A DNA stretch of 64,000 nt from Psammoneis japonica. Its lineage: Eukaryota. Of the stretch, positions 10,419 to 53,636 are shown in pieces. A program made the position numbers and the translations under genes. Every line of letters starts with the position of its first letter. Positions within the stretch are counted from its first letter, which is position 1. The stretch covers positions 124,001 through 188,000 of the forward strand of contig QPGO01000029.1 in assembly GCA_008632985.1 (NCBI GenBank), in the 5' to 3' direction. The notes beneath the pieces are model-generated. The model did not search any database. It was not told where the DNA came from and worked only from the letters and a program-made list of their open reading frames with translations.

Positions 10419-10769
10419 ATTCCACTATGGTGTACGGTGTACCGGTATCTCTCCTTTGCCGTTCCTTCTGCACGCAACCGCCATGGGACCCTCAATTTTG
10501 TGAAGGGAAGTGAGACGTGAGACATCATTCTCTATTCTACAATATACATATCCATAGCTTTTTATATGCCATCTTGTTGGGTTATCAGCCGGCCTTCGAC
10601 CTGCATCTTCCAATCTCCAGACTCTCTCTCTCTCTCTACCGGCACTGCTCTACTCCAGCCACGACTGGTAGAGGGCCCCTGCTCTCTAGAGCAGCTGCCA
10701 GCTCCGAAGTAAGTAGAGAGTACCTGGTACAGGTAGAGTGGAGCTCTAGAGACGACGAGGAACTCCTCG

Positions 10770-15000: not shown

Positions 15001-15430
15001 TGAGAATGACCCCCACAGTTCTCAACTCTGTTTGAAGACATTGCAATGTCCTCCACACAAATTCACGTTCTTGTGCCATCTCGGGTCTCTGTTGGGAGAG
15101 CCTGCAGAAGAAGCCAAGTGGCATGTACTTGGGCTGTTTTGCAGGGATGCCTGCCAGTGATTTTTCACAAGAAGGAGTGGTCAAATTGAAATGTTTGAAG
15201 AGCACCACAATCAATGGTCTCTTTCTGAAGATGCATTGCTTCCTTTCTTTTCACTGGATCGGCACCCTCCACCGCAGCCACAGCATGTCTGAACCCATTG
15301 TGGGGTGTTCCCCGGTTCTTGCCACAACTCGACTTCAGCTTCCACTGGACTGTGCGGTCTTCCACTTACCAAGTTTGTCAGTCTGGAACAACATCACACT
15401 GTCAGCATCCGTGACGGTGCCAGAGACTCT
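12010..15430. mobile_element. Unidentified degenerate (probably transposon-derived) sequence, TpA- and CpG-depleted
   Basis: Same composition as the adjacent copia remnant, fragmented coding-like frames, no motif I can assign. Confidence 0.5.
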
Positions 15431-26760: not shown

Positions 26761-27197
26761 GCGGAACGAAAAAAAAAATCAAAAAACTCCGACATCCGAG
26801 GGAATCTTCCGCGCACGAATCTTTTCAAGAAACGCGCGACTTCGAAATTGATCGATCATGTTCGTCATGACGTCATAGTTTCCGTCCATTCAACTTCGCC
26901 GACCCAAACAGTCGCCGACCTCTCGGGAGAGCTCACAAAATGATCGTGATGCGAGCTTGTTTTGCTCTCTCACAATTTGCTCAAGAAGCAACAAGAGAAA
27001 CAACAAGTTACTACAAGCAATGACGAACTCTATCCATACCACGATAAGACTATCGAAGAGCAGGCAAAAAATTTGATGCTCTCTGATCCTGACTTGCAGG
27101 AAGAGGCAAACTTGACAAACTTCAACATGCAGCGCCGGCGACAACAAGAACGACTTGAAGAAAGAGGTAGACACGAAGAAGGAATCTCAAAGCCAGT

Positions 27198-31598: not shown

Positions 31599-33250
31599 AT
31601 GCATCGTCGCAGCGTCAATGAAGCTAGAAACACAAAGGTGCTGCCCACTCAGAAGAAAGGCACCCGAGATAAAAAGAAGGGAACACAAACCGTTTTTGTT
31701 TTCTTGGTGCTTGCGATGTTTGTGGCTCCTCTGATTTTGTTTCTTGCGATAAAATCCCTTCCCGAGTCAACGCGCAGTGACCGAGTAGAGTATCCACTAC
31801 CGTTACACGGACTTGAGAATCATCGTCTGCGACAAAAAAAGCCTCGAAGAGTTGATGATCATCCGGACCCACCGAAAGATGCTCTGAGAGAGCCTCCAGT
31901 CACTGATGCGGAAGTCAACAAGGACCAGAAAGTCGCCAACATCAGTAAAGACACGGAATATTACATGATCTTTTCTACGTCGTGTTCTGCCTTTCAGGAT
32001 TGGCAGTCTTATGTGCTTTTCTACACTGCCATGAAAGTCAAACAGCCCGGTCACGTGATTCGTCTTGCGTCGGGATGTACCGAAGAAAAAACTGAAGTGC
32101 TCAAGAAAATTCACGAGGAACGAATCAAACCCATGTCTGAAAATTTCCATGTTCATTTTACACCAGACTTTGCGGGAGAAGGCAAAGATAGGTACAAGTA
32201 CAATAACAAGCCTTTTGGATTGCGTCACTTTATGGAGAACTTCTTGGGATACCCTGAAAACAAAGAGGCCGAAGACGCGGTTATCATTATTGTGGATCCA
32301 GACCAGTTGTTGCTGAAACCAATCACACGCGACTTTTCCCAAACCAATGTTATATGGCATTTGGGACCCGACGAAATGAAGGGGATCAAAAAACCGAGAA
32401 CTCGAGTCGAGCACGGAACTCCTATTGCCCAAATGTATGCTTTTGGGGATCAGCCCTTTCGTAAAGTCAACATTTCCGCCGTCGCTGGCAAGGACTCTCT
32501 TGCTCTTAAAGTTTCTACCAACGAGGCAATTTCCTACTATCCCGCTGGTCCACCGTATTTGGCAACCACACGAGACATGTACAATATTGCAGTGCACTGG
32601 ACAGAATTCATGCCCGAGATTCACCGTCAGTACCCGGAACTTCTTGGTGAAATGTTTGGATACTGCCTGGCATCTGCACACGTGGGCCTGCCGCATCAGA
32701 TTGCCGAAAGTTTCATGGTGAGTGATCCAGACATGACACAGGAAGGGTGGGGCCTGTTTGAATCGTATCCTGTCGAGAGCTTGTGCGAGCCAGATGCGGT
32801 GCCCGAACAAGATTTGCCGCAGGTTCTGCACTATTGTCAACGGTACTGGCTGGGGAAATGGGTGAGTTACCGAATTGAGTCTGCTGACGGGCTTTCGACG
32901 TTTGCCATTACTAATGCTATATCATTTTTCTCTAGTTTATCGGAAAATACCGTTTAGATGAGAACTTTATTTCTTGCGAGGCCCCACTCTTGACCGAGCC
33001 ACCAAAGGATGTCGGAGTCAAGTATGACTATTACATTGCACCGGGAGGAGTTCCTTATGGAACAAAGGTGGAACTGTCTCCTGAACGAGTGAAGCGTCAT
33101 GCGTGGACCATGTGCTTCTTGATTCGAACTTTGAATGAGGTTGCCATTTACTTCAAAAAGCACCATTGCGACGAGACCGCCAATTACAACATGACGTATG
33201 TGTTTGGACCGAATCGCACCGAGTACTCAAGCAAGTTACAGAAGCATTAA
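31599..33250 (+). CDS. Type II membrane HPAT/SERGT1-like glycosyltransferase; 2 exons
   Basis: N-terminal TM, FSTSCSAFQDWQS, RL, NKPFGL, DPD, GPPY, EMFGY, LHYC. Intron 32862-32935. Confidence 0.8.
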
Positions 33251-33586
33251 AAAAAGAAAAGATTGTGATATACTGTACTTACAGAACTGGTACCACGAAG
33301 ATTACCTAATTGTCCAAAAAGGAGGATCGCACTCGGGTGGTGAGCTGATAATCTTCGCTGGAATAGGGTTGTGCTACACTGAACGCATGAATCAATCCAG
33401 CGATTGCATCTTTGGAATGCACAGGTAATAGCAATACTGTTAGGTTTTATTAGCTATCTTTTGCTCATTATACTTGCTTACATGGGCCAATTCTACAAAA
33501 GCTTGACAACAGATTCGATCCATTACTTCTCGCATCAACCATACAACCAATTATTTTAAAATTTCACACAAATACAAAAAACAACT

Positions 33587-34282
33587 TTACAACCCCGCCT
33601 TTTTTGCTGCCTCTGCCTGTAGCTTGGCAATGTCTGCTTCAAGCATCGCGTCGTTGTATCCCTTGACTGTCGGATTCAGTCTGCAAATCGACTCACTTAG
33701 TGCAGTAGCAAGAAGAAGCCATAAAAGATAGGGTATCAACAAAATCCCCGATAACGGATAAACGTTGTAAAATGAGGAAATGATTGGCAGGAGGGTCGCA
33801 ACCAGCGCAATGTTCATTACATGACCAGCACGAAGTCTCTTCATTCCAAAGAAGACAAAGGCCCACGAAATGTTTAGGGCATAGTGAAAGAAGGCCAGTT
33901 TCATTTCGGGAGAATTTAGGCCTTTCACTTTAAACACTCTGAAGCCCGAGTATCCAATGAGAGAGTATAGAATCGTCCAAACGATTGGAAACACTCGGTT
34001 TGGAGGTGTCCAGTCAGGCAGACTGATCCTTTTGTACCAAGTATCTGTGGCTTTGGCTACAAATGGTGAACCAAGAGAGCCACCAATAACTGATCCCACT
34101 ACCCACGTCACTGCACTACTCCCGATAGACATGGTCAGGGGCTTGACCGTGTTGACCCCACGAGGCTGAACAATCCGTCGCTCCTGCAAACCCAATTTTG
34201 ACGATGGTGTCACAAGAGCAAATCCCGAGAAAGACCTACTGAGCAACACGAGAAACATTGACAAGGTTTTGAATCGGCACAT
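33587..34282 (-). CDS. TSPO: TspO/MBR translocator family protein with presequence
   Basis: WYKRISLPDWTPPNRVFPIVWTILY, LNISWAFVFFG, LLIPYLLW. Confidence 0.9.
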   Translation of the reverse strand: MCRFKTLSMFLVLLSRSFSGFALVTPSSKLGLQERRIVQPRGVNTVKPLTMSIGSSAVTWVVGSVIGGSLGSPFVAKATDTWYKRISLPDWTPPNRVFPIVWTILYSLIGYSGFRVFKVKGLNSPEMKLAFFHYALNISWAFVFFGMKRLRAGHVMNIALVATLLPIISSFYNVYPLSGILLIPYLLWLLLATALSESICRLNPTVKGYNDAMLEADIAKLQAEAAKKAGL

Positions 34283-34682
34283 GGTGAATGAGATGGTCTG
34301 GCAAAGAGCTCTCACTCTTTGATCTCAGTCTAGAGCTAGTACGGTAGGGTGCCGTTGCCCATTGCGGCGAAAGAGGCGAAAGTCCGAAAGATCAAAGATC
34401 TCTCAGATTGAAGATCCAGATCGCGTCACGCAAGACATCGCGTGCAAGGACAAAAAACAGACTGTGTGTCGTCATTTGAAATTTCCGGGTGCCTGGCTGG
34501 GCCAGTGAAGAATGAAGAATCATGAATCATTGAATCATTCATCATTCATCATTCTCATTCAACGCATCGGCAATCGAGCAATCGACAATGTTCGAGTGCG
34601 TTCCAAGCAAAGGAAGTCCGAAGAACCGAAGAACCGACCACAATCTCATATTTTTCTATAGTTAGCATATGAGGGATCACTG

Positions 34683-36364
34683 ATGTGTCAGTCAGAACAG
34701 AAGCGACAACGACCAAATTGGGAAAGTGTGCCGAAAACTCGTGCTTCAGCGGGGCTCCTGGTTATGAGAACATTTCTACTATCCTTGTCGAGGAGAACGG
34801 GTGAAGATGCTGTTGTTGTTGTTTATCAGCTCGCGAAACAAATCTGCTCTTCAGCATGGCAAGGGCAGATTCTTCCCAGGTTTACCGTGGTACTTTTTGG
34901 TCAGTTTGCCATTCATGTTTTTCTATTCGGGTCATCGCCATTTCTGGAGTCGACTGAGAATAATCGACTCGCTTCAGCACGGCTATTATCACTTTTACTG
35001 ATAATATTGAATACAGTTCTCAATGTTATCGGCTATGGGTTGTTGGTGAGGCTGTACCGGCATTCGGTCACCACCATATTTAATAGGAATCTTCCAAATA
35101 CTGTCAGGCAATGCATCCCATCGTTTGGGGCTCACATGGCGATGCTTCGTCCTTTGGAAACCTGCTGGCGTTATGCAACGGCAAGGTTCCGTGTTTTGCC
35201 TGATATTATTGTTCTTGGAGAAGTTAGATGTGGCACCACGACCCTATGTCACCATTTATCTGACTTACCGGGTTGCAAACAACCGTTTTGCCTGTGGAAG
35301 CACCCAGAGCTCGATAGAAAGGAAACATTCTACTTTGTAGGACACTATCTCGGAATGGTGGACCCCGTGTATTATCGGATGTGCTTTCCTCTGGCGATTA
35401 CCAAATGGTTTCACCGAGTCGTGCTGCGCAAACCCTTTTTCACGTTTGATGGATGCGCACAATACCTCACCAGTCCGACCGCGCCCTATCTCATTGCACA
35501 AGCCTACCGATTAGCCGGCCAACCACCACCAGTGTTGGTTGCATGCGTTCGAGATCCAGTGGACCAAGCTGTTAGCTGGTGGAGATTTGAGAACAATGCT
35601 ATGAGTTGGTAAGTATTTATCCACTTCCTATAGCGACCCGCTGTATCGATATGAACGCGACCAATTCATGTCCCATTTATCTTCTGTGCAGGGGCAGCAG
35701 CATGGGATTAACTACTTGGAACACGGATTTGAGATCATCGTCATATCCACCAAGCACAATTTCCAATGCGGTTGACTTTTCATCTTCGGAACCGGTCGAA
35801 CAGTCATACCAAAAAGCCGAGGCGCTGGCCAAGAACATGATCTCGAATCCACCAAGTCCTTTTGTATTCCCATCGTGGGCCTTGACGTGGCCTTCTGGTC
35901 AACTTTCAGTGATTGGGCGAAATGGACTATACTGTCACAATATTCGTAGGTATGAAAGGATCTTTTCCGAGTACTTTCCTATTTTGGAGAAGCAGTCGAC
36001 ATTAGAGGACATTTATCCCAGTCAATCAAACTTGAGACACGTAAATGTTGTGCCACTCATGAATATGAAGTCAACAACCCAGCTGAGCAACATCATGACA
36101 GCACTAATGAAACAGATCACTACACGCCAAACTGAAAATGCTCCTCATTTAGAGCTGGCATCCCATGGCACAATAAGGAGCTGCAGCCCTGTACACCGAA
36201 ATGCAACGCTTTCGCTACAAGAAGAGGACAAGTTACTCACACCACAAGAAGAAGCCCGTTTGATCCACACATTCTCTAGAGATACGCAAGAGTTGGAATC
36301 CATATGTGGCTTTTGCTTTGGTTGGAAATCTTCTCAGCTGGAGACGGGAGAAGAGACTCGGTGA
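34683..36364 (+). CDS. Sulfotransferase-domain membrane protein; 2 exons
   Basis: LPDIIVLGEVRCGTTTL (5'-PSB-like), KETFYF, RDPVDQAVSW (3'-PB-like). Intron 35609-35691. Confidence 0.8.
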
Positions 36365-36849
36365 CAAATTCCGAGTAATGGAGAAGAGAGAGTTGCCAGT
36401 GCCACACAGTAATGCACACGCAGTGCAATCGTAGGTCAAGCCACAGTTGGAGTCCATTCTTTTGGCGCTACAGCTAGCGATTTACCCGCTGATGCCTAGT
36501 AGATAGCTAAATCGCTAGTAACTGATGCCAAACTCCACAAACTGAAATGCATTTGAGGCACATAGCATATGACCCATTGCCAATGTCATCCAATAAGATG
36601 CTTCGTCTCGAAGTCGCACTCTAGAGCTGTCTTTCTCTAGTCACAAGGCTGTGTTTAAAGGGACAGTGATTCAAAACAAACATTTTAGAATTTTGGGGAG
36701 GAGTTCAAAGCGCTTATGACGCCATCTCCACTGCATCCACCTCGCTCTATTCTACTTTAGTGGGTCGGGCTGGCTGACTGGCCGGCCGGACCTTGCGGGT
36801 CCTCACAAAAGCGCGCTCGACTGTCCTCAATGTCACAGTAGACTAAGAC

Positions 36850-38963
36850 GCTCACAAGAGCAAATGGTCTGCGCAAGCAAGGACGCTTGCCCTCACTCTT
36901 GCCATGTGTGCAGCAACTGACAAAGAAATGGAACTTGGTGGCCAGGGGCCAAAGAAGCCAAAGGCAGGTGCATGTGGGTGCTGAAGCACTGCCCAGATGC
37001 AAAAGTCTCTGCTGGGAAAGAGCCATTGAGTGCACAATCCTTGCACCACAAGTGCACATTGAGGCTGCAAGCTGCAGCAGCAGTTGCTTTTGTGAAAAGA
37101 CGGTCTCTGTGAAGCTTGGGATCAAGTGCTCCATTGACACACAAGCTGTCTCATCATGTGCTCGGGTGAGGATGATCCAAAGCATCATTTGGACAGCTGC
37201 AGGTGTCAAGAACAAGGCAGCAAAGTGAGCACGTGGGACAACTGCCAACTCCTTGCTGCTGCAAGGAGCAATTCTTTGAGAAGAGGGTCGTGGCACCAAA
37301 GATCAGCTGGAGCAGCACCTTTTGGGCAAAAATTGTCTCAAAAAGACAGTCAACACAGCCATTGTCAAGCCCATTGTCAGGCAACTGTGCTTGGCTGACT
37401 GGAAGATGAGAACAGGGTGGGACAAATGGAGCAGCACATGAAGAGTTCACCAGAAAGGAGCTGTCATCACCTCAACACCCAAGTGAGAGGTTGGTGCAGC
37501 AAGCCAGCCAAGGTGGGCAAAACATTTTTGAGAGATCCCCTTTCAGAGTGTGTGTGTGGGGGGGGGGGGGGAATCCAAGAAGCAGTGCTCAAGACACATG
37601 GTGCCCTGAAAAGTTCAAGCAGTGCTGGGGTTGTTAATCTGGTCTTGCTGAGTGGTGGGAGTCTCCTCTGCAACTGGCAAGGAAGATTGTTTGGAACACT
37701 TGGATCAGCCAAACACTCTGGATGACAAAAAGGAAATTGGTTGTGGCCATGAAGAGCATGTGCCTCCTCCTTTGGAACATTTCCTGCCAATGATGGAGAG
37801 CACCTCCTGCTGTTGACACCAGCCCAGGATGCAAAGCAAGCTGCCGGTCATTCAATCTTTGCACTTGAAGCTGCTGATGAGCTTGTTGCAGCTCGGTCCA
37901 TTTCAGGCAGTGTGGAGCAAATCATCTTGCTGATGCATGCAGTGGTGGATGAAGAAGAAACTCTGACAAGAGCACCGCCAGGTGGTGCTCTCCATTTCAT
38001 GAGACAGCTCAGCAAAACTCAATCTTCATCTGTGCTGGCTGCAACAACAAAGAAGAAGTTGCTGCACAGTGCACTGATGAGAGACGGGAAGTCATGAGAG
38101 CAAGCAGTTGGCAACAGCTTCAGCTGTGTTGCTGAACAAGTTTGGAGAACTGTGCCATGTCTCAAGGTTGTTTGCACCAGTTGAGTCAAAGTCACAATCA
38201 AGCTTTTTCAACACCACAAGGTTGACTCAAAAACTCAGAAGTCTTGCTGCTTGACTTGCAGACCAAAGAGGAGCCAGCCCTGGTCAAGTGCTTGAAGCTT
38301 TGTCAAGAAAGGCCAAGCCATCAGAACCATGAGGTGTGTTGTTCTCTGTGCTCTTGTTCTGGGTGCATGTTGACAAGCCAAGAAAGACCAACAAAGAGAC
38401 AAGGGCAGATGGGTCATCATTTCAAAGCCACAATGGGGCATCATTGGTCAAGTGTCCAATCATGGCCAGCATGCTTGGCTTCAGCTCTTTTGAGTTGCCA
38501 CCACAGGCAAAGTTGGTGTGCATCAGAGAAATCCACCAACCCCCAGGTTCCCAAAGATGCATCATTGCAAGACACACTTCTTTGGCTGACACAAAATGTG
38601 GGCCACACTGAAGAACAATCCATGGAAGCTTGAAATGTGCTGGCTGAGAGAATGCCCCCCTTTTGGTGTTGCACTTGTTGTGCAGCACATTGTGATGAGA
38701 GACAACTTGCTTGGAAAGCCACACACAAAAAGGGCTGAAAAGCCATCATCATGATTCATGGCATGTTTGGTGGACTTGGACCCAGTCACCTCTTGCACAT
38801 GATGCTGCCAGCTCTTTCTTTTGCAAGCTGCTCGGGGTGCTGCTCAGTGAAAGATTCATTCAGACAGCCACTCTTTGAGTGCAAGAGAAACATTTCAAAT
38901 GATGTGTGAGATTTAGAGTTGAGGCTTTGTGAAGGTTCTGTCTCTCAGCTGGCAAGGGCCAAC
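36850..38963. mobile_element. Unidentified degenerate TpA-depleted repeat-derived sequence
   Basis: Compositional continuity with the copia element to the right; no assignable motif. Confidence 0.45.
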
Positions 38964-39387
38964 TGTTGGAACATCTAGAAGATGGGCAATTCCAGGAGCC
39001 CAGACATGTTGAAGAGAAAATGTTGTTGCTCCTGACATGGAGGATTCAGCGACTCTTTGTGATTGAAATTTCATCATCATTGATCTCTCTTGCCTTTCTG
39101 TTTGTCTCACTCTTTGGAGCAAATCATTTGGTTTGTTTGGTTTGCATGATTTTGTTGCATTGGTGGTGCCACTGGGTGTCTGTCATGTTGCAGGTGTGAA
39201 GTTTGCACTGACAACTTCTGGGCAACACACAGCTGCTGCAAGCAGCCAAAGCAAGAATGACAAGCAGCACAGGAAGTCTCACAGGATTCCCTTTTGGTGA
39301 CATTAACTTGCTGGCTCAATGTTGACTCCAAAGAGTGAGAAGCACTGCATTTGGTGCTTGACAACACTGTTCTAACTGCAGTCAACA
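38964..39387 (+). repeat. Putative 5' LTR (right boundary approximate)
   Basis: Starts TGTTGGA; first ~310 bp align by eye to 48227-48530; candidate end ...gtcaaca. Confidence 0.65.
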
Positions 39388-40399
39388 GATTGCAGAGTGC
39401 CTGCACAATGAGAGGCAGAGGAAGTGGCAGATCTGACAACCAAGGCTGAGGATGCAGTCACAGAAGAGGTGACAAGAGTTCTGGGTTCTCTGGTCTGAAG
39501 AAGAGGACCATTGCTGAGAAGCACTTTCAGCCTGAGATGAAGTTCCATCCTTCATCACTGAACAGCAACTCTTGCAAGAATGCAACATGCAAAGACATCA
39601 AGGAGAAGATCACACAACACACACAGAAAGAGGGTGCTCAAGATGTGCATTTGAAAAGATCCACAGAAGACATGAAATGCAATGTCTTCAGTTCTGAGAA
39701 GCCAAAGTCAGGTGCAGCCACAATGACCTTGCAAAGCAAGGGAGATGGAAACTGTCAGTTAGAGCTGGAAAAGAGATGACAAGAGGAAAAAAAGCTGGAG
39801 CACCAGTGCAAGGGGAGCTTCATGAGCACACAATGACAAAGTGAGGCAGTTCAAAGAGAACAAGGCTGCTGCATGCACCAAGATCCCAGACATTTGCTGC
39901 ACCAAGCTGACAAAGAAGAGGGAGTGCAAGGCAATCTCACTTGTGCAAGCATTGGCGACAATCTGATCAAGCCACTGAAGCTGCTGATCCAGTCACTTGC
40001 ACTTGACACCCATCACACACACTTGCCAAGTCTCTGCAAAATGGGCTGGATGAAAACAGCAAGAAAATGAGTTGCTGAACAACTGCCTGTCAAGATTCAA
40101 GAATCAACAAGATGTTGCAAGTGAAGGTCTTTTGGGAACAAGATGCCAGATGGATTCATTTCCCACACCAAGGAGCACAAGAACAGCATTGTGGTGAAGA
40201 AGCAAGTGCTGAAAAATGCAGTGTTTGAGAAATGGACAACATTCCTTGTTCACAAAGAACAGCAACCCTTGACAAAACAGTGGATGCTGAGTCATCTGAA
40301 AGACAACATCCCTCATGAGGGACATGACAAGAGGAACAACAACAGCAATGATGAGAACAAAAACAAGAGGTCCAACCATGCAAAGGACTGGATCTGCAC

Positions 40400-43130
40400 C
40401 CAAAAGGGCAATCAGAGTGACACCACAGTTTGTGCTGCTGTTGCAGTGAACTGAGTCACAAGTCCCCAGACTGCAAGCTTCAAAATGACATTGCATCTGA
40501 CAACTGATTTAAGAATGTTGAGTCCAGCCTCAAGTTTGTGCTGCTGAACTGCACAGCCCTGGTCAATGTTGAAAGTTTTACACAAATGGCAACCACCTTG
40601 CCTGCAGGAGGTTCCATCATCATTGCTGGTTTGACCATGCTTTTTTGCATCTAGGGCAAAATTTGGAAAGACAAAGGATGGAAATGCTGCGCAAGCAGAT
40701 GTTGACATTTCTTGTTGCACACAAGAGGCTGCTCCCACATTGTGTTTGTGGCTTTGCAAGCACACAGAACAGGTGTTGCAAGGGTTCAAGGATGAACACA
40801 TTGGGGTGGAAAATGTGGGCCGCTGCTTCCAAAACTGCACCCGCCAGGTTGAACACCATTTTGCACCCCTCCTGAGAAAGAAAGTGAGGAGCATTCTCAT
40901 GAACAAGCATTTGAGTTTAGCCAGCAAATGAACAGGAGTCACTTCCCCATGCATTGGCAGCACCACAATTTGGAGACTTTGGAGTGTGGCATTGAAGAAA
41001 CACTTCCTGGTGGCAGCCCGCCATTTGGCCATTACCTCGACATTTTTGAGCTGACATGCTTTGATCTGGTGGCAGCCAAAGTTCTCTGCAAGGATGCCAA
41101 AGAACTCTTGAATGATTTTGATGCAAAAATTTGCAAAGTTTCCTGGGGTGGCCAGAGATTCTCCATCCCAGATTCTCACAACACCTTCCATGGGTGCTCG
41201 ATGCTAGAGAACCCCAGCGGCAGCTTCAAGAAAATTGTTTGGAACTCATCGTAGATGCCCATGCTCGGATGGATGGATGGATGGCGCCGTGATGATCGAG
41301 ATTTTCCTTGTTTCTCAGAGTTGTGGCGTTCACGTCATTGACGCTCCGCCCGATTTGCTGATTGGTGGATCTGATTCGTTGGACATGCCAGACGACTTTC
41401 AACAATGGCTGGAAGGATCTGAGAAACAAGTGAAGATGGAGAAAAGGTTCCAGGACGCCACAGTGTGCTGTTTGTGCTTTCTCCGGCCTCTCAAGATCCC
41501 AGACAAGAAGCTGGATGAAATGAGCCGCATTCCTGTCGGCTGATTTATGATGCAGCAACTGCAAAAGCATCCTTTCAAATGCTCTCAATTTGATGAATGC
41601 CGAGCTTACACACAGCTGTCGTTTGGTCCTCGTCAACAGCTGGAGAGGCCGCATTCTTGACTCTGCTCTGGAACTGCATGCACTTGAGCGCAGGTGTGGA
41701 CGCGTTGTGCAGCTGCAACAGAAGAAGTGGTGCACGCGGCAATGCCCGTGGGCTTTTTCCTTTTGGTCCCAACATTCTGCGACGAGGTGGGATGAAAGAA
41801 TCCCACATCCCACGCATCACTTGAGCAACAGGGAAAACACCAAGTGCAGGGAGCCCCGAAGTGCCCCTCATCTCAACCATGGATGCTGCAGCTAAAACAA
41901 GAAGGTGAAAGTGTCATGACCGGGGCTGTCAATTTAAGTGCTCGCAGCAGGTTCGACAGAGCTGCAAGTGGTCGACATGTGCGAAATCAGCAGCTGCACA
42001 AGTGAAATCACTTGCAGCCAGCACGTTTCTTGCAATTGAGACAACCCTGCTCATGGCACTTTTGTTGACTCCAATGTTTGCCCTTCATGTGCTGCAGACC
42101 GCCCATGCCTCGAATGGGATCCTTGGCGCAATTGCAACATGACAACCAGTCAATGTCTGCGGAATCCCAAATGTCGCCCACGCAGCAAGCCTGTCCTTCC
42201 GTTTTCCTTTGTTCCTCTTGCAGCATTTGCATGGTTGGAGGCCAGGCAGTTTGGCCCATCCAATGCGACGTGTCCACGGGTGCGCAACAAAAATGGCAAG
42301 ACATTGTTGTTTCGACCTGGGCTCTGACGGATGTTCTCAAGCAACAACTTTCTCTTGTCCTCTGACAGCAAGCGAAATGTTTGTCGCTGGTTGTGTGACG
42401 GAGCATGTGTGAGCCCATCATGCTCATCGGCTGTCGCAACTTGCATGCCGCCTGCAGAGGCGGGGCCTCAGTTCTTCATTTTCATTGGCTGCTGAAAAAT
42501 TCGGCGCGGCACAGCAGAGCTGTAGATCCCTCAACCTCTCGTTGTGGATGAAGTTTGTGTTTTTGTGATTTGAACTTTTGCAATTTGAAATCGATCGGAA
42601 GGATCTCTCGATCTCAACCTTTTTGCCACCAATCCTCGATCTGACATCTGACAGCATCTTCCTCTTGTTTTTCCTGCTCTCGCTCTCCACGCCACCATCA
42701 TGACAAGTTCTTTCCAGTCATCCAACTGGTCTCGCATTGCAGCACAAACAGCCTTGTTGCTGTCTTGTTTGTTGTCATTGGCAATGTGCCCACATTCCAA
42801 AGTGGAAGAATCCTTTCTGTTCCAAGCATTGCATGACTTTGTTTTGACTTGCTGCATTTTTTTGGCATTTCCCAGTTCACCCGCACGCTGTGCGGCAGGC
42901 AGAACCCAGCGCCATCGCCCATCCAACGCAACAACTCGGTCGTCGTCGCATCCATCGTGGCGTCCCTTGGGAGGTTCCCCCGTCAACCTTCCACTGCTTG
43001 TGCACGAGTCGTCACACACAAAAACGACATGTCAACACCTTGTCAGTGGACAGCAACAGTGCCCATGTGTCGACGCCACCAGATCCAATTGATCAGCACG
43101 TTCCAGCTGAAGCAGGAGTGCTGCATGGCA
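40400..43130. mobile_element. Unidentified insertion between gag and pol; much of it CpG-retaining but TpA-depleted
   Basis: Interrupts the copia polyprotein order; abrupt rise in CpG from ~41200 to ~43100. Boundaries approximate. Confidence 0.5.
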
Positions 43131-43139
43131 TGGATTGCA

Positions 43140-46100
43140 ACTGGCAAATGAAAGGTCAGAGATGATGAGCATGAACCAAGCCAAAAAAAAAGACACTGGC
43201 GTGGTGGATGAGATCAACCTTGACATTGGCTCTGCCCCCAGCATGGCAGCAAGCCAGACATGTGTGCACAATGTGCGGCCAGCAAAAATCAAGATTAATC
43301 TGTTCACAAACACAGGAATGGTTGTCCCAGATGAAGACCGCACCACATGCCTGAATGGGAAGGATGTGAAGCTTGGATTGCAAAATGTGACAGCAAACAT
43401 CCTCAGTTTCAAGGACATGAAGAGCAAGTGCAGTGTCACATGCGACAACTGGGCAGCGGATGAGCAAACAAGCTGTGGTGTTCAAAGTCAACAACACATT
43501 GGCGCCAAGCCAGAAGTTCTCTGACATGCAAAAGATCTCAAAGAAAGAAGCAAGTCATGTGCTGGCATGCTGTCAAAGAAGAAGGGGGGGGGGGGGGGGG
43601 GGGGAGGAGGTGGTGGTGAGTGCTGCTGAGCAAGTGCTCAGATTGCACCATGAAGCTGGAATTCCCAGAGTGAGAGATTTCAAGCTGTTTTTACAATTAA
43701 ACCAGGTGATGAAGAACTTGTCCATCTTGCCTGAAAATGTGAACAGGATGGTGGCCATGTTTGGGGAACATCTGCAGATGTGCTGAAAAAGGGAAGTTCA
43801 AATGTGCACGTTGGTCCCATCAGAGAAATGACATTGTTGCTGTTCCACCCAAGACACACAAGAAACAGAAAGAAGGTGTGATCCTCTGCATTGATGCTGC
43901 AGAAGCATGCAGAGTGAAGATGCTGTGTGCAATTGACAAGATGATCAAGTGTCAGTCAAGTGTGAGATTGCAATCCAAGAAGCACATTGACACACACAAT
44001 GCATTGGACATGACACTGTGCCAGTGCAACACAGCTTTGTTGAACAATGACTTCATTGAGTGTGAGGATCCCCAGTTCAAAAACATGTTGGTGGAAGTCA
44101 CAGATGGCATGAACCCAGAGCCAACATTTGCAAACAATGGCAACCATGTTTTCTGTGAAGTTGGGTGTGGAGCATTGAGACCATCAAGGAGCAAGCTCAC
44201 GTCCATGCACACCACCTGTGCCACACAAAATGACACCCAAGTTGATGTGCAAGCATGCCATGATCAAGAACACTGTGATGGCAAACATGTGCCCACAGCA
44301 GGAAAGAATTTCTGACATGTGCAGTCCATGACACACTGCTGTGCAACAAAAAAACCTTGACTGTGACAAGCACTTTGTGCTCACCTTTGGCTCATTTGTC
44401 CCATCTCACATTGAAAACAACCCAACAAACACCATGGACACACATGGGGCATTGACAGCACATGCCTGCAACCATGTTTTGACATTCCCAAGGTGGTCAC
44501 TGCACTGTGAACCTGCATGCATGGAAGCTGTTGAACCCCTGCAAGTGTGCTGCCTGTGCCCCTGACCAACACACATGCACCAAAGCAGTTGAGAAGACAG
44601 CCTCAGCACAAGGCATCAAAGGCTTTGAATTTGTGGGCAAGTGTGGAGACAACCTGCGCGAGGCAGGTTGGATGGCAGGAGTTGACAATGACGACAGCAA
44701 CAGCAACAGCAAAGACAAAAGCAAGGATGAAAACAAAAATGAGCACAACAATTAAGAATGGAAGGGCTGTGAAGACAAACCTGACCCAGATGATGAACAT
44801 GAAAAAGCCAATGAGATCTGGCAGGCACAAGATCCAGCCCCAATGAACAGCACAATGACCATGAAGATGATGAACAAGAAGACTGCAAACAAGACAAAGA
44901 GTCAGAAGAAGGCAAAGTGTCCACAGATGAGAAAAGCAGAGAAGCAAAACTGACAGATGAGGTGGGAAAGATGCCAGGCACAGTGACAAAGAGTGGCGCA
45001 AGGTTCAGTGCATCCCACAATGCAGGGTCACATGAGCACAGAAAAAAGAAAGTTCAGTTTGCAATGAGAGCGGCAGAGATGAAGAAGTGGAGCAAGAGCA
45101 GAACAAGCTCAAGCACTGCCATTGCTTGAGAACAAACATTGGCCCCAATCCAGAAACTGACGTTGAACATCACACAGAAACAGGAACGGTGCTGGCACAA
45201 TTCATGTGTGAGATCAATGACCAACTCTGATCAGGAAAGGGCACTTCCTTTGCCCAATGGCATTTGCTGCATGAAGGCCTGAAGCATTCAGCCAGAGGGG
45301 GCATGGTGCCTTGCCAGAGAAGGAGATGAAACAGTTCCATGACAGAGCATGCTTTGTGCCAATGTCAATCAAAGACATGACTCTGGTTGAGAGGACCAAG
45401 GCCATGGTTGTTCTGACATTTCCAACAGAGAAGCAAGACAGTCACCTGAGAGGGCAAATGGTCTGCAATGGAAAACCAAACAAAGAATGACTGGACAAGG
45501 ACAAATCAGCTGGCCCGACAGCATCATTGGAAGGAATGCTGATCACAGCTTTTGTTGATGCCAAAGAGTGTGACGTGATGAGAGCCAATGTGCCAAATGT
45601 GCTCACATGCAGACATGGAGCCAAAGGAAGGCAAAGACCAGCTCATGATGAAGATTGCAGGAGTGTTGGTCGACGTGCTTGTGAGCATGATCCCAACCTG
45701 TGGCACGGTCATGGAGAAGGAGAAGAGAAGTCTCCATGTCCAAAGCTGTGCAAGGCACACCAAACATGGCTCCACTGTTGTGTGAGCATGTTTCACAAGG
45801 ACTTGGAGAAGATTGGGTTTAAGCTTGACCCATGTGATCTGTGCATTGCCAGTCAGTCAGGAGTGTCAATGGCAAGCAGCACACTGTTTGTTTCCATGCA
45901 GATGATCTGTTGTCAAGCCACAAAAAACAAAAATCAAACAACAAATTTTTGAGTTGGCTGAACAAGATGCATGGAAGCCACATGGTGAAGTTGCACAGCA
46001 ACATGAGAGAAGAAGCATGGCTGCCTCAGCATGACCCTGGACTTCAGCCACAAGAGCAAGGTGAAGGTTGACATGACTGAGTGCACTCACAAGATGTTTC

Positions 46101-46860
46101 ATCAGTTTCTGGACAAGATCAAGAGCACAGACACTGCCATGGCACCATCAGGGAAAACCTGTTTGATGCTGGTGGTGCCAGATTGCCAGCCAAGAAAGCA
46201 AAGACATTCCATGCAGCATGGGTGGCCAAGGGACTGTTTGCATCCAAGAAAGGCCACTTGGATGAGCACCCCACCATTGCAGAGTTGTGTGTGCAAGTCA
46301 GGCAGGCAGACAACAAGGATTGGGGAAAGCCACTCTGTTGTCTCAACTTTTTGAGCTGGACACAAAACAAAGTTGCTGCATTGAGCACAAAGGACCTCCA
46401 AGTTGTCAAATGGCATGTGGATGCATGATTTGCAGTGCACCCAGATTTCAAGAGCCACACGACAGGATTTGTGACTGTGGGCAATGGAGCAGCAAGCAAG
46501 CTGTGTTCAAGCAACAAAAGCTCAACACCCAAAGCAGCACCAAAGCTGAGCCAGTGATGACACAATGACCACCATGGCATTGCAGATGAAGTTGTTTATG
46601 GAGCACCAAGGCCATCCAAATGACAAGAACATCCAGCATCAGGACAACAAGAGCACCATGCTGTTGGTGACCAGTGGGCACAGGAGGGCGGAAAACACTC
46701 CAGAGCACTTGATGCTCAGCATTTTTTCATTGCTGATCAGATCAAGAAGGCAATCTTAGAGTGCAGTGTTGTCTCTCTGATGAAATGCTCAGAGACTTCA
46801 TGATTGAGCCACTGCAGGGCAAGAAATGTCAAAAATTCAAATGAGCTGTTTTGTGGGGTG
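43140..46860 (+). pseudogene. Copia pol pseudogene (protease end, integrase, RT, RNase H)
   Basis: ANILSFKDMKSKCSVTCD, LHHEAGIPRVRDFK, FGSFV..H.ENNPTNTM, EMKQFHDRACFVP, TEKQD, VCNGKP, PTASLEG, GFKLDPCDLC, GKQHTVCFHADDL, KWHVDA*FAVHPDFKSHT, QGHP...HQDNKS. Confidence 0.9.
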
Positions 46861-46885
46861 TCAACTTCAAGTGTGACAGGAGTGT

Positions 46886-48218
46886 TTCCTGTTTCTGACT
46901 GACAAGAATTCTGATGCATGTGGATGAAAGAACCCTGCAACCCCCAGAAGATGTGGCGAACCACATGTTTTTTTAGAGCAAGCATGATGTTGATGACCAT
47001 GATTGCTGGCTGTGTGCAAGGGAGCTGCCAGGGCACATCAACAAAATCCTTGAGCCAAATGATGCAATTGATGGCCATGACATTGTTGGGATGTGGAGTT
47101 TAAAAGTCAGATGGATTGCCGGACAAGAAGAGGAAGAAATTCCAGGAAGATGACTGCTGTCAAAAGGCACTGGAAGAATGTGACAAGTGGATGAAGTGTG
47201 GACACTCCTGACTGCCTCAAGACCCACCACGTTTTCACAAAGAAGCAACCAATGTGGGTCTTTTGATGATTGAGTTCAACAAGGACACGAGGATGCCCAC
47301 CTGGAGCATTCTCAGTGCATGAATGGTGGAACAAAACAAGAAGAAATTTGTGGAAATGTGGCATGAGCTGTGGACAGCAAGAAGGCACAATCTCATGTGA
47401 GATGTGCATGCTCAAATGGACAGGGTGGCCTGACAAAGTGTGTCGGTGCATGTCCGCTGCCACATGCTGATGATCTCCCTGTTTGACATTGCAGGAAATC
47501 ACACAAGTGCCAACAAGGGAGGGAAGCACACAAGACCAAAGAATGTTGGCAATTGTTGAAGGCCAAGCCTGGGTGCAAGACAAGGGACAGCACCACAAGG
47601 AATTGCATCATGACAAGCATTCCAACAAGTGTGGAAGAAACAACAATCATGGGATCAAGAGGCAATGAATTTTTAGACAAGCATGGTGTCAACCATCTGA
47701 GTGGACTGTCATCAGTGGGTTGTTCCACCTGTGGCATGGGCTTCTGTGGGGGACATGTGGCCTCTCTTGTGGAGTGTGGCACCAACTGACCCAGAGAGAG
47801 CAAAATGTGGTGATTTGGATTGGTGGTGTGAGGCAACAATGGTGTCATGCATGATGCTTTGAAGTTGGCATGATTCTTCCAACATGACATTGTTGAAGCA
47901 AAGCCTGAAGCACAGTGGGCCTGTCATGACATGGAGCTCTTTTAGCCATGCTCATGGACAATCATGATTGGGTCATGCACCCAATCAGCCAAACAGCAAG
48001 GCTGCAATGGAAAGGACTCATCACACTCATGTGAAACATTCAGTGGATCAAGCAAGCAAGATCACAAATGCATTTGATCATCTGCTTGATTTCCATTGTT
48101 GCAAACCAGGACAGTCACTCACTGTCTGTGATCTTGTGGCAGACACACCAGAAGAAAGTGCCAAGCTGGCATGCTTTGACAAAGTTGGGCAGTGGCAGAA
48201 AGTTGATGTGAGCTGCAG
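46886..48218. mobile_element. Nested ~1.3-kb insertion at the PPT/3' LTR junction
   Basis: Flanked by near-identical 9-mers caggagtgt (46877-46885) and caagagtgt (48219-48227). Confidence 0.5.
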
Positions 48219-48226
48219 CAAGAGTG

Positions 48227-48530
48227 TGTTGGAACAAACAGAAGATGGGAAATTTTAAGAACCCAGAAGTGTCAAAGAGAAGACAGCGTTGCTCCTGATG
48301 TGGAGGATTGGGCAGCTGCTTGCATTTGAAACTTCATTGTCGCCAATCTCTCTTGCGCCTTTCTGTTCATCTCATTCTCAAGCTTTGGAGTGAATCATTT
48401 GTTTTTGCCATTTTTTTGCACTGGTGCCACTGGGTGTCTGTGGCATTGCAAGTTTGTGTCAACAACTTCCAGGCAACCCAAACAGCCAATGCAAGCAGCC
48501 AAGACAAGCATGACAAACAGCAAAGAAAGC
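48227..48530 (+). repeat. Putative 3' LTR (apparently truncated)
   Basis: tgttggaaca...gaagatggg...gttgctcctga...tggaggatt...ggtgccactgggtgtctgt...acaacttc...gcaagcagccaa shared with 38964-39275. Confidence 0.75.
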
Positions 48531-49301
48531 CCGCTGCACACTGCAGAAAGTGATGCCCTGCCAATGTTGAGAAAGCTGCAGCAACCACTGGAGAAGCAGC
48601 AAAAGACACAAAGCTCTGGGAAGCATTGAAGTGCAAAACATGTGAGAGCACTCAAAAGAGCTCCCACCCACTCTGCCTCAAATGGCGCCTCTGCACTGGC
48701 AAAAGACACCACAAGAGCCAGCTGAGTTTGAGGATGAACTGTTCTTGTCTCTGCACCTCCATGATGGCAAGGCGCTCAAGTCACTTGCAGCCAAAGCAGA
48801 GGCTTTCAAGGCAGAAGCTCTGCTGCACAAGTGTGCGCGGCTGCTCCCGAAAGAACTGCTGCCATGTGGTGAGTGTGCACACTTGCAAACAACGTTGTCC
48901 ATGGTGGCATTTGCTCCACTCCATTGTCAACAACACCTGTTTCCTGTGATTCATCCTCACCAACAACTGACAGGCTTCATTTCTGCCAACAAGAAGTGGG
49001 GCCATGGCCAAACATGGAGTGTCTCTGAAGAAGAGTGCGACGACCCCCAGCAGGGAGTGGCTCTCCGCGTGCTTTTGGGGCACGCAACACGCAACGAAGG
49101 CTGCCATGAAGTGGTGGCGCACAAGCTTTGTTTTAGGTTGATGTCCGCCTTTCTTTCCTTCTCTCTTCTTCTTTTCTCTTTCTTCCCTTCTCTTCCTTCC
49201 CGCCCTCCTTTACAGCATGTCTCTATCTGCTTCCGCCCCTGACACCTGACGCCTCTCTCCGCACATCGCGCGCATCCACGGAATTGTTGCCTTCGGCCGC
49301 A

Positions 49302-49383: not shown

Positions 49384-50469
49384 ATGACGATGACGACGTT
49401 GCCAACAGGAGCAATAGCAGCGGGTCATTCACGTTCATGGTACTGGCTAGTAATTGTTCTAACTGTTGTGCATAAGACGCAGAGTAGCGCTTTTTATGGT
49501 TTTAAACAGAGATGCTCGTTTGTGACACCAAGAAAAGTACCTGCTGCAATTCGAGTCAAAAAGGGTTCTTTTTCTCGAACGTTTCTCTTTTTTCGCACTG
49601 TGGATCCACCAAGACCAAAGACGCCGTGGAAAATTCCGGAAAAAGCTAAAGAAGAGCTGCAATCAGGAAAAGTAAATCTTCCATACACATTTAAACTTGG
49701 TTACGACGATGGGGAATCTGCAGCATCTGCTGACTCGGCAACTCTGAATAGCACGGAGAGAATACTGACTGTACGGTATTTAGAGACTGAAGATATCGCC
49801 TCCATTCTTCCAATGTGCGTGACCGAATTCGGGCCAGGCCAAACCGCTCAATTAGGGGATTTTCCGTGGGAGGATTTGACATCAACAAACGTGAAGGATT
49901 GGTGGGAGCGATTCGCCTTTGTAAGGCTTCTTGCACTTGCAATGCGACTCAAGATTCAACGGCGAAAAGACGGAAATAATCCTTCCAACCCTGCCAAACC
50001 AGATGATAACATTCTGTGTCTGCAGCAAGATGATAAAGTTGTCGGTATGGTAGAATTGAGCTTGGAACCGCCGTTTGCAGAACGCAACCCGCCACCATGG
50101 CCGATTCCAATGTTTCTCAAGGAGCTCTTTTGCGAACAAAAGGGTATCCCCCCACCGGATGGTTGGATAACAAACTTGCTTATCGATGACCGATATAGAC
50201 AATTGGGGTATGGGAAAGTTCTAATGTGGGCAGCGGAAGGGCTGGCTCTTTCATGGGGCTGCAATTCAATATATTTGCATACTGTAGCCGACAGCATCGG
50301 TGGAGCGATACCTCAGGCCCTGTATCGTGGTCTTAACTACGAGCCGGTAGTAGATCAACAGTCGGCCCAGAAGTTCGCTTGGATGGGTCCCGAGATGCTG
50401 AATTCTGGGCTGTACATTGTGGAAGGCGTACCGCTGTTGTTCCTGCAAAAGCGTTTGAATGCATCGTAG
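49384..50469 (+). CDS. GNAT-family acetyltransferase, probable plastid presequence
   Basis: VVGMVEL, WITNLLIDDRYRQLGYGKVLM (motif A), IYLH, ALYRGLNY; signal ending SSA-F. Confidence 0.85.
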   Translation: MTMTTLPTGAIAAGHSRSWYWLVIVLTVVHKTQSSAFYGFKQRCSFVTPRKVPAAIRVKKGSFSRTFLFFRTVDPPRPKTPWKIPEKAKEELQSGKVNLPYTFKLGYDDGESAASADSATLNSTERILTVRYLETEDIASILPMCVTEFGPGQTAQLGDFPWEDLTSTNVKDWWERFAFVRLLALAMRLKIQRRKDGNNPSNPAKPDDNILCLQQDDKVVGMVELSLEPPFAERNPPPWPIPMFLKELFCEQKGIPPPDGWITNLLIDDRYRQLGYGKVLMWAAEGLALSWGCNSIYLHTVADSIGGAIPQALYRGLNYEPVVDQQSAQKFAWMGPEMLNSGLYIVEGVPLLFLQKRLNAS

Positions 50470-52584: not shown

Positions 52585-53636
52585 TCAAGGCAAATCGAGG
52601 TGAACCCTCCCTTCGCCCAAAAGCTAAGCTAAGGATATAGCATAAGACGTGCAAGTTGGTGAGCGATAAGAGTGATGACACGATGCCATATGAGACAAGA
52701 TTCAAAGCACACATCATCGTGACGAAAAAGCACAACAAAAAATGATCCTCGCTCTCGGAGGGAGTTTTCGCAGGCTTCGTTTAGTGCGAACCCCGATGAG
52801 AAGCCGAAAATACACAACACATCATGGCGTTCTTTCGACGTTGATGAAGGCACGTCGACCCGAGAAAACATCAGTCAAGTCATCTGGCACCATGGAAAGG
52901 CCGCATCAGCAAGAGATGACAGTTGCCCAAGCAAAAAGGCCGCTTTGCATCACAGAGTCCCTAGCTAGCACGTTTTCCACGACCACAGAAACAGCATCCT
53001 CCCTACGAATCACACCTTACACTGTAACTTGCCTTAATGCCAGAGGATGAAGAAAAACTTACGATTGGCTTTCTCGGAACACTCAAGTCAATGCCAACGG
53101 CAACGTATGATGATGGCCTCTCAACCGAGAAAGGCGAGGCAACAGCGACGACGACGACAACAGCAGATTCCGGATCTCGTGGGAGATTCATGAAATTTCA
53201 GATTCACCGCAGATTCGTCTGTCCGCACCAAAATTCCAAAAAAGCAAAGCACGAGACAACATCTATCCGGGCTTTCTTTTCCCAGTCCGTCCGGCCATCA
53301 GAACTTCCCTCCGACACACAACACGACGACAACCACAGGACCAACCGGCAAACCGCCTTCTGGGGGACGTCTTCGGAAGTGAGACTGTCGAAGAAAGTTA
53401 CGTAGAATTTGTACTAAAACAGTCTGTCAATCAGTGCGATTTGGTATTTGGGACCTCTGGACAGATCCTACGTGTTTTCTTGCGCGTACAAAATGTACTG
53501 GGAAAACCCCCAAACGCACTGGCGATCAGACCGCCTTCGACGATCTCACTTCCAAAGACGCCCCCCACTTCGTCGTCTCACCATAAAGCTCAAAGCACAG
53601 CCATCACATCGATCTGATCACGTGATCGCCGCAACC

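Follow-up and report, generated by a model that had tools for sequence, protein, structure and literature searches.

Mutagenesis directed at the dinucleotide TpA has been described in the chlorarachniophyte alga Bigelowiella natans. In mutation-accumulation lines of this organism, analyzed with Illumina reads, 231 of 302 nuclear point mutations were located in integrated giant-virus and virophage regions; nearly all of these were A-to-G or T-to-C changes, and all such changes were at TpA (10.64898/2026.01.13.699255). The rate was ∼6e-7 per site per generation, ∼1000 times background, and the hypermutation was seen in some lines only. The same source reports 124 clusters in the B. natans genome that are depleted of TpA and enriched in CpA plus TpG, and an enrichment of reverse-transcriptase and DDE domains in TpA-depleted genes. 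Mettrop et al. (bioRxiv 2026) suggest that a DNA adenine deaminase resembling ADAT2 is responsible, and cite both the action of ADAT2 on DNA in amphioxus and Trypanosoma and the preference of RNA-acting adenosine deaminases (ADARs) for a 5' U; the terms CpG, diatom, and Phaeodactylum each have 0 occurrences in the main text of that preprint (10.64898/2026.01.13.699255). Our literature search found TpA-targeted mutagenesis described there only, and no report from a diatom. Here we describe two TpA-stripped blocks in the diatom Psammoneis japonica, within a stretch of 64,000 nucleotides (the window; GenBank assembly GCA_008632985.1, contig QPGO01000029.1, positions 124,001 to 188,000 of the forward strand; all coordinates below refer to the window). 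The larger block contains what homology identifies as a decayed Ty1/copia long terminal repeat (LTR) retrotransposon. Neither a diatom nor a retrotransposon seems to have furnished such a case before, and this one is at saturation and comes with information on sequence context and timing. The original prediction, made from the letters of this DNA, knew of no such system in diatoms; our search likewise found none there, but the same TpA hypermutation was described in B. natans in 2026 (10.64898/2026.01.13.699255).

Fungal repeat-induced point mutation (RIP) is a second system with which the blocks can be compared. Like the process seen here, it inactivates mobile DNA permanently and by transitions only, is restricted to the element, reaches high saturation, and creates stop codons. 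RIP differs in its chemistry, since it changes C to T mostly at CpA and so creates TpA, depletes CpA and TpG, and lowers the G+C content. It is triggered by duplicated sequence, is tied to a sexual phase, and needs an enzyme of the RID/DNMT4 type. Diatom transposons are CpG methylated (PMC2806351, PMC9998398), and the diatom enzyme DNMT4, of unknown function, is related to the fungal RIP enzyme RID (PMC9998398). The available text of these two papers makes no mention of a TpA effect or of RIP-like decay in diatoms (PMC2806351, PMC9998398).

In 1-kb windows, the observed/expected ratio of TpA was 0.02 to 0.12 from 37001 to 49000 and 0.28 to 0.98 in the rest of the 64-kb window. The intergenic TpA-free block at this position, block B, extends from 36845 to 49133 (no strand assigned) and contains 30 TpA in 12,289 bp, against ∼480 expected. 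TpA is dense until 36844 on the left, and the next TpA is found only at 37635; on the right, single TpA are present at 48256, 49134, and 49211, and the dinucleotide is dense again from 49347. A second, intergenic block of the same composition, block A (10748 to 15366, no strand assigned), is TpA free (10 TpA, ∼181 expected) and largely CpG free. TpA-free gaps reach 1279, 1167, and 1074 bp in the blocks and no more than 304 bp in the flanks. Pooled over both blocks, and with expectations taken from flank context frequencies, 40 TpA were seen where 660.3 were expected, and 187 CpG where 914.2 were expected. The observed/expected ratio of CpG was 0.04 to 0.23 over 37001 to 49000, apart from 0.60 to 0.70 at 41001 to 43000; TG and CA reached 1.5 to 2.2 in block B, and G+C was still ∼0.48. 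The original prediction had reported a near absence of TpA over ∼12 kb, abundant TG and CA, and a return to normal TpA within a few hundred bases at both ends, in host genes. The counts in 1-kb windows and the positions of the edges bear out all of this, more strongly than stated, and add block A. The lowest TpA ratio outside the blocks (0.28, 20 TpA) was at 26001 to 27000, where CpG is normal (1.14); this is probably ordinary gene composition.

The losses and gains balance. The summed frequency of TA and CG fell from 0.0931 in the flanks to 0.0134 in the blocks, a drop of 0.0797, while that of TG and CA rose from 0.1451 to 0.2247, a gain of 0.0796; the total frequency of pyrimidine-purine (YpR) steps was unchanged (flanks, 0.2383; blocks, 0.2381). 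A one-for-one conversion of TA and CG to TG or CA by transitions predicts this pattern and no other. Depletion affects TA and CG alone of the 16 dinucleotides, and strong enrichment is confined to CA and TG; in the blocks the observed/expected ratio (rho) is 0.04 for TA, 1.77 for CA, and 1.84 for TG. The remaining twelve shift by no more than ∼0.17 between blocks and flanks, including ApA (1.14 in the blocks, 1.17 in the flanks) and AG (1.10 and 0.98). This is the opposite of the RIP footprint of TpA excess with a deficit of CpA and TpG: in the diatom blocks TpA is destroyed, CpA and TpG are doubled, and G+C is unchanged. The statement in the original prediction that fungal RIP cannot explain the TpA loss therefore holds.

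The content of block B was identified by homology. A full HMMER search with the translation of 45823 to 47100, in which TGA was read as a residue, returned 1165 proteins at an E value of ≤1e-3, the best at 1e-32. When relatives were scanned against Pfam, 4 of 4 matched RVT_2, the Ty1/copia reverse transcriptase, two of them below the cut-off. Searches with tblastn and with a profile placed a copia protease/integrase region with several frame changes at 43081 to 44836 (+), and tblastn placed a reverse transcriptase and RNase H remnant at 45072 to 46853 (+), with F-H-A-DD in place of the W-H-V-DD of the relatives. The pol gene is thus collinear on the + strand from 43081 to 46853, with integrase upstream of reverse transcriptase and RNase H downstream, and its 3.7 kb contain no fewer than 8 frame changes. 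A profile built from the N termini of 11 full-length relatives gave weak, collinear gag-like matches at 39513 to 40522 (+), which we regard as tentative: profile positions 30 to 90, 95 to 267, and 330 to 363 correspond to 39513 to 39707, 39742 to 40269, and 40364 to 40522, with independent E values of 2.2, 0.037, and 0.021, respectively. On this homology the block is assigned a decayed Ty1/copia LTR retrotransposon, in agreement with the transposon origin first proposed for it.

Annotation by domain families alone does not recover the element. The block's own translation (the copia stretches 44821 to 45819 and 45823 to 47100, one frame) fell below every Pfam threshold, and all six stop-masked frames of 36845 to 38963 gave no Pfam family. 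Open reading frames (ORFs) of at least 100 amino acids (54 plus 21) yielded no real Pfam family inside the blocks; the sole match there, Internalin_N, was below the cut-off (16.5 versus 24.1 bits), and the flanking host genes supplied all the real families. Within block B, the stop-masked Pfam scan covered 36845 to 38963 in six frames, 40000 to 43600 on the - strand, 40400 to 43200 on the + strand, and the copia stretches in one frame.

A pair of direct repeats brackets the coding region. Copy 1 (38964 to 39276, +), possibly the 5' LTR, and copy 2 (48227 to 48529, +), possibly the 3' LTR, are the sole internal repeat of the window; copy 2 starts 1.4 kb past the end of pol. A dot plot of the window in a purine/pyrimidine alphabet, noisy at k = 22, showed no repeat besides this pair. 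The copies were 70.6% identical in the repeat search and 75.9% identical in nucleotides over 303 aligned bases, and the identity rose to 94.4% in the purine/pyrimidine alphabet. Their 73 differences comprise 56 transitions and 17 transversions, a transversion divergence of 5.6%, and swaps between TG and CA account for 12 of the 25 adjacent double mismatches.

The direction of change was deduced from an alignment of copia pol with its relatives over 495 columns, in which a 12-codon overlap of the two query stretches (45823 to 45859) was counted twice. Tyrosine was observed once against 15.1 residues expected, and in-frame TGA 7 times against 0; histidine (37 against 14.1), cysteine (19 against 8.8), and glutamine (29 against 17.8) were in excess, and isoleucine (10 against 25.7) and arginine (19 against 27.3) in deficit. 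The 14 columns with a Tyr share of at least 0.3 now carry CAT (four), TGA (three), TGT and TGG (two each), and CAA, TTT, and TAT (one each). Where Arg has a share of at least 0.5 (11 columns), the codons are CAA or CAG (four), CAC, TGT, and AAA (two each), and one unchanged AGA, a codon without CG. Codon changes in the A-to-G or T-to-C direction also occur at Val and Leu consensus columns; the family motif W-H-V-DD has become F-H-A-DD, in which V to A is a change of GTA to GCA, the one signature change there. The H of this motif was considered as a former Tyr (Y-V-DD) and was ruled out, since the relatives carry W-H-V-DD. With His, Cys, Gln, and TGA codons now at Tyr and Arg columns, TA and CG were ancestral, and, because the products CA and TG both lie within one ORF, both DNA strands were mutated by transitions. 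These protein columns, with their CAT, TGT, CAC, CAA, and CAG codons, bear out the conversion of TA to TG or CA, by A-to-G change on either strand, that had been proposed for the block.

No strand coherence was detected. Block B contains 1352 TG and 1426 CA, near-equal numbers, and their order is random by a runs test in block B (z = -0.19) and in block A (z = -1.57). Deamination by ADARs or by tRNA adenosine deaminases (ADATs) resembles the process described here in that A is read as G and a 5' U or T neighbor is preferred. The two differ in that ADARs edit one RNA strand in clusters, whereas here both DNA strands are affected and interleaved; strand-coherent A-to-G clusters were not seen, and both TG and CA stand at the Tyr columns of one ORF.

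Loss of TpA and loss of CpG can be separated in space. Relative to flank frequencies, TA survival in the cores of the two blocks is 0.054 to 0.071 and CG survival 0.04 to 0.11; at the four block edges (300 to 715 bp each) TA survival is 0 to 0.036 and CG survival 0.28 to 0.73. In block A, for example, the left and right edges have CpG survivals of 0.42 and 0.28, and the core one of 0.04. A segment inside block B (41019 to 43099, no strand assigned) has lost TpA and kept CpG, with a TA survival of 0.098 and a CG survival of 0.79; its stop-masked frames gave no Pfam family at 40000 to 43600 on the - strand or at 40400 to 43200 on the + strand. The copia profile breaks off at position 363 (40522) and restarts at position 378 (43081). 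The gap in the profile, and the location of the CpG-rich right end (43099) next to the restart, support a nested insertion, and the segment is probably a younger insertion of ∼2.1 to 2.5 kb in the copia element. If it is younger than its host element, TpA would have been lost at least ∼6 times faster than CpG (ln 0.098/ln 0.79, a conservative estimate). Alternatively, the segment is simply unmethylated; either way, the TpA process is independent of the CpG process. Decay of methylated CpG accounts for the CG-to-TG/CA half of the changes, strongest in the element cores, but it cannot remove TpA, and TpA loss extends over a broader domain than CpG loss, taking in the segment with a CpG survival of 0.79. 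The two processes are therefore separable, and the claim that the TpA process is restricted to the insertion and distinct from CpG decay is upheld by the sharp edges and by the nested segment.

The few TpA that survive are not distributed evenly over sequence contexts. With strands collapsed, survival was 0.51 for TTAA, 0.20 for CTAA, 0.10 for GTAA and for CTAG, 0.022 for CTAC and for ATAA, 0.018 for GTAC, and 0 for ATAC, ATAG, and ATAT. Expressed per strand for the target A of TA, the preference at position -2 is A > G > C > T, and an A at +1 protects. This dependence looks like the preference of an enzyme.

Relatives in other assemblies were compared at the DNA and protein levels. The DNA sample consisted of the best 80 of 544 confirmed metagenome loci, a ranking that favors intact copies. 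TpA rho was at least 0.28 in 80 of these 80 loci, with a median of 0.64 and a longest TpA-free gap of 395 bp, and the median CpG rho was 0.835. Lack of TpA is therefore not a family trait; the original prediction had left room for intact relatives that are equally TpA poor, and these best 80 loci are not. The protein sample consisted of the 156 relatives returned by two protein searches. Their median tyrosine content was 3.0%; tyrosine made up at least 2% of residues in 112 of them and no more than 0.8% in 20, among them a protein of 376 amino acids with 0 Tyr and one of 541 with 1 Tyr. At Tyr-consensus columns the residues of these 20 tyrosine-less relatives are His (26), Cys (38), Tyr (8), Phe (10), or others (8), while Tyr stands at 100 of 122 such columns in 15 control relatives. 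Ten of them were looked up and proved to be single-member clusters from ENA, Logan, and JGI assemblies. Arginine is barely reduced in the tyrosine-less proteins (including P0026, P0052, P0075, and P0156), which, as far as protein sequences can tell, suggests TpA loss without CpG loss in other organisms. None of the loci encoding the 20 proteins is among the best 80 of 544 DNA loci. Such ORFs are predicted to be long by gene callers because TAA and TAG cannot occur in them. Among the metagenome loci, L068 shows classical CpG decay only (CpG rho, 0.09; TpA normal at 0.87; 31.5% G+C); TpA rho is 0.38 in L070 (CpG, 0.11), 0.28 in L069, and 0.31 in L045 (CpG, 0.47). These loci and L053, with partial or different decay, may be intermediate stages.

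The blocks share with the B. natans system the change of TpA to TpG or CpA on either strand, confinement to integrated DNA of foreign or mobile origin, the adjoining host DNA being normal, a footprint of clustered TpA depletion with CpA plus TpG enrichment, and a strong GC-ward bias, along with the reverse-transcriptase and DDE domains of the TpA-depleted genes there. A-to-G and T-to-C transitions are supported here by the codon columns, the constant YpR total, and the 56 transitions against 17 transversions, all indirect for want of a parent copy. Restriction to TpA is supported by the TA rho of 0.04 and by the spatial separability of the CpG loss, and confinement to mobile DNA, for the parts of the blocks whose content was identified, by the sharp edges, with copia pol inside and host genes outside. 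The two cases differ in host (a rhizarian there, a diatom, and thus a stramenopile, here) and in target (a giant-virus or virophage insert there, an LTR retrotransposon relic here). Depletion in the nucleocytoplasmic large DNA virus (NCLDV) region of B. natans reaches a TpA rho of 0.45 and is near-total here, at 0.04. CpG loss accompanies TpA loss here, and a wider sequence context is visible; a live mutation rate was measured there, and rough bounds were drawn here.

We consider it probable that the blocks are old mobile-element insertions between diatom host genes, block B being a Ty1/copia LTR retrotransposon with at least one nested insertion, and that they were rewritten in place by two separable mutation processes that are restricted to the insertions. 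One would act on either DNA strand, replacing the A of 5'-TA-3' with G so that TG or CA results, and would be ∼95% complete over the whole insertion, up to its edges; its chemistry would most likely be enzymatic deamination of adenine to inosine in DNA. The other would be deamination of methylated CpG, from CG to TG or CA, near complete in the cores but only partial in the nested segment and along the edges. The outcome would be permanent inactivation, with Tyr codons and most CGN Arg codons destroyed and TGA stops created. The sequence itself shows the composition, the direction of the changes, their occurrence on both strands and only in the insertions, the uncoupling from CpG loss, and the influence of neighboring bases; an enzyme, its targeting through silent chromatin or small RNAs, and a role in defense are what we infer from this picture. 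Several points weigh against it. No close intact parent copy of the copia element was found, the best matches being 33 to 48% identical, and the substitution spectrum is accordingly taken from protein columns and not from base-by-base counts. TA is self-complementary, so that A-to-G and T-to-C changes are indistinguishable and the modified base could be thymine. The element is old, with 17 transversions in 303 bases of the repeat pair and a pol of 3.7 kb that changes frame at least 8 times, and, given enough time, a moderate increase in rate could lead to the same endpoint; "hyper" mutation is not proven here. The arguments against an artifact at the level of the sequence are all indirect.

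Of the explanations that need no such system, it is unlikely that the blocks record slow neutral decay in heterochromatin under an ordinary context bias, as from error-prone repair synthesis or from polymerase eta acting at WA. The elements are old, as the frame changes and the 5.6% transversion divergence of the repeat copies indicate, and saturation masks the true rate, both of which are in keeping with slow decay. However, the WA-to-WG signature of polymerase eta, a candidate in the original prediction, is not supported, because ApA is untouched (rho, 1.14 in the blocks versus 1.17 in the flanks). The nested segment would have lost TpA at least ∼6 times faster than CpG, if CpG there was methylated at all; a rough bound from the repeat pair puts the TpA hazard at ∼1.5 per base against at most ∼0.05 for other transitions; and intergenic host DNA a few bases beyond the blocks has normal TpA. 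We think it quite improbable that the composition is a sequencing or consensus artifact, in which dense base modifications (5-methylcytosine at CpG and a mark at TpA) were miscalled as TG and CA while the real DNA keeps TA and CG. Conversion is almost deterministic and context dependent, as systematic miscalls would be; frame changes are found only in the blocks, the host ORFs of 516 to 658 amino acids being intact; and odd poly-G runs and the only N of the window lie inside the blocks. Contigs assembled in Logan from three runs of one sample speak to this: of 31-mers sampled from 32000 to 41999, half of which is block, those of run X1 hold 0.99, those of X2 0.36, and those of X3 none; no RNA data set was listed as containing them. 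Contigs like those of X1 require words that recur without error, a thing seldom obtained from noisy signal-based reads, so that its value would imply accurate reads, although X1, a run of unstated platform, may have been the source of the assembly. We know of no basecaller behavior by which 95% of methylated CpGs would be miscalled. Tyrosine-less copia ORFs with His or Cys at Tyr columns occur in 20 entries, of which the ten looked up come from ENA, Logan, and JGI, and the same signature was measured by Illumina reads in B. natans (10.64898/2026.01.13.699255).

Editing before integration, by which retrotransposon RNA or cDNA was hyper-edited by an ADAR-like adenosine deaminase and the edited copy then integrated, we judge very unlikely. 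It would suit the retroelement that is the best-identified content of the blocks, would account for edges that match element ends, and would agree with the 5' U preference of ADARs (cited in 10.64898/2026.01.13.699255). Editing of sense RNA, however, yields TA-to-TG changes only, whereas CA (1426) and TG (1352) are randomly interleaved in block B; the nested segment, of another CpG state, and the flanking parts are equally TpA free; editing of ∼95% of the sites in one molecule is implausible; and the target in B. natans is an integrated DNA-virus sequence that mutates in place (10.64898/2026.01.13.699255). Scarcely credible is a native composition under selection, in which the family lacks TA and CG by nature, for example to evade a host nuclease or sensor. 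Avoidance of dinucleotides is known in viruses and phages, but a copia pol devoid of tyrosine cannot be functional. The idea is refuted by the ancestral Tyr and Arg columns, by the normal TpA in 80 of 80 of the best of 544 relatives' loci, together with a Tyr content of at least 2% in 112 of 156 relatives, and by a reading frame that TGA stops and at least 8 frame changes interrupt.

If the blocks were indeed rewritten in place, a broader proposal can be framed, on which we are evenly divided: a dedicated DNA-editing defense that converts TA to TG or CA on both strands of silenced insertions, common to diatoms and chlorarachniophytes and widespread in marine protists, faster than and independent of methyl-CpG decay. 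It would rely on one enzyme, a DNA adenine deaminase or a thymine-modifying enzyme, with its own preference at positions -2 and +1, and could be called "reverse RIP." The suggestion of a wide distribution comes from the tyrosine-less copia ORFs in many environmental assemblies, and that of a single enzyme from the extended context preference (A > G > C > T at -2, with A at +1 disfavored).

The content of block A is less clear. A search with tblastn using residues 1268 to 1348 of P0082 gave a weak reverse-transcriptase fragment at 10838 to 11086 (+; E value, 7e-4), which is the sole match in this block and is tentative. Its six stop-masked frames contained no Pfam family at the cut-off, and one match below it, DiatomPyrShell (14.2 versus 27 bits), was taken as chance; a tblastx comparison of blocks A and B gave nothing convincing. 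The window has three runs of at least 14 G, and 3 of 3 are inside the TpA-free blocks, all with G on the + strand. The longest, in block A (11453 to 11487), consists of 26 G, the single N of the window, and 8 G; the others are in block B, at 37558 to 37571 and, as a run of 21 inside the copia coding region, at 43584 to 43604. Natural G tracts in the elements, or an oddity of assembly in repeats, could account for them.

The genes around the blocks are those of a diatom host, and the flanking ORFs of 516 to 658 amino acids are intact, frame changes being found in the blocks only. To the left of block A, with normal TpA, is a prephenate dehydratase (9177 to 10418, -; Pfam PDT, E value of 2.8e-55; 75 to 82% identity to named diatom proteins). 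A 310-amino-acid ORF (8254 to 9186, -) trails it on the same strand with a 10-base overlap, and many diatom relatives are fusions of 650 to 714 amino acids with prephenate dehydrogenase domains; the gene (8254 to 10418, -) probably continues past an intron or a frame change. To the right of block A is a major facilitator superfamily (MFS) transporter (15632 to 17182, -), identified by Pfam, whose nearest atlas cluster is mostly Bacillariophyta, and to the right of block B is a GNAT acetyltransferase (49384 to 50469, +), also identified by Pfam. Comparison of a second host protein with the atlas yielded no taxon signal. Farther on, a 658-amino-acid ORF (53493 to 55469, +) has NOP9-like PUF-repeat nucleolar proteins as its nearest atlas clusters (a close match by score).

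Relics of this kind matter for annotation. They evade Pfam and repeat annotation, with 0 families at the cut-off in ∼17 kb, and they give rise to long spurious ORFs, since only one of the three stop codons can still occur. They can be found by a scan for TpA-free tracts, by comparison in a purine/pyrimidine alphabet, or by a search for tyrosine-less ORFs. Saturated relics also inform on matters beyond the reach of a live experiment, namely, the extended sequence context, the independence from CpG decay, and, for a nested insertion, which events came first. If the process is real, diatoms would be the second major eukaryotic lineage with TpA-directed genome-defense mutagenesis, and one that is ecologically dominant and has good genetic tools. 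Such a distribution would suggest that the system, so far seen in one rhizarian alga, is old or has evolved repeatedly.

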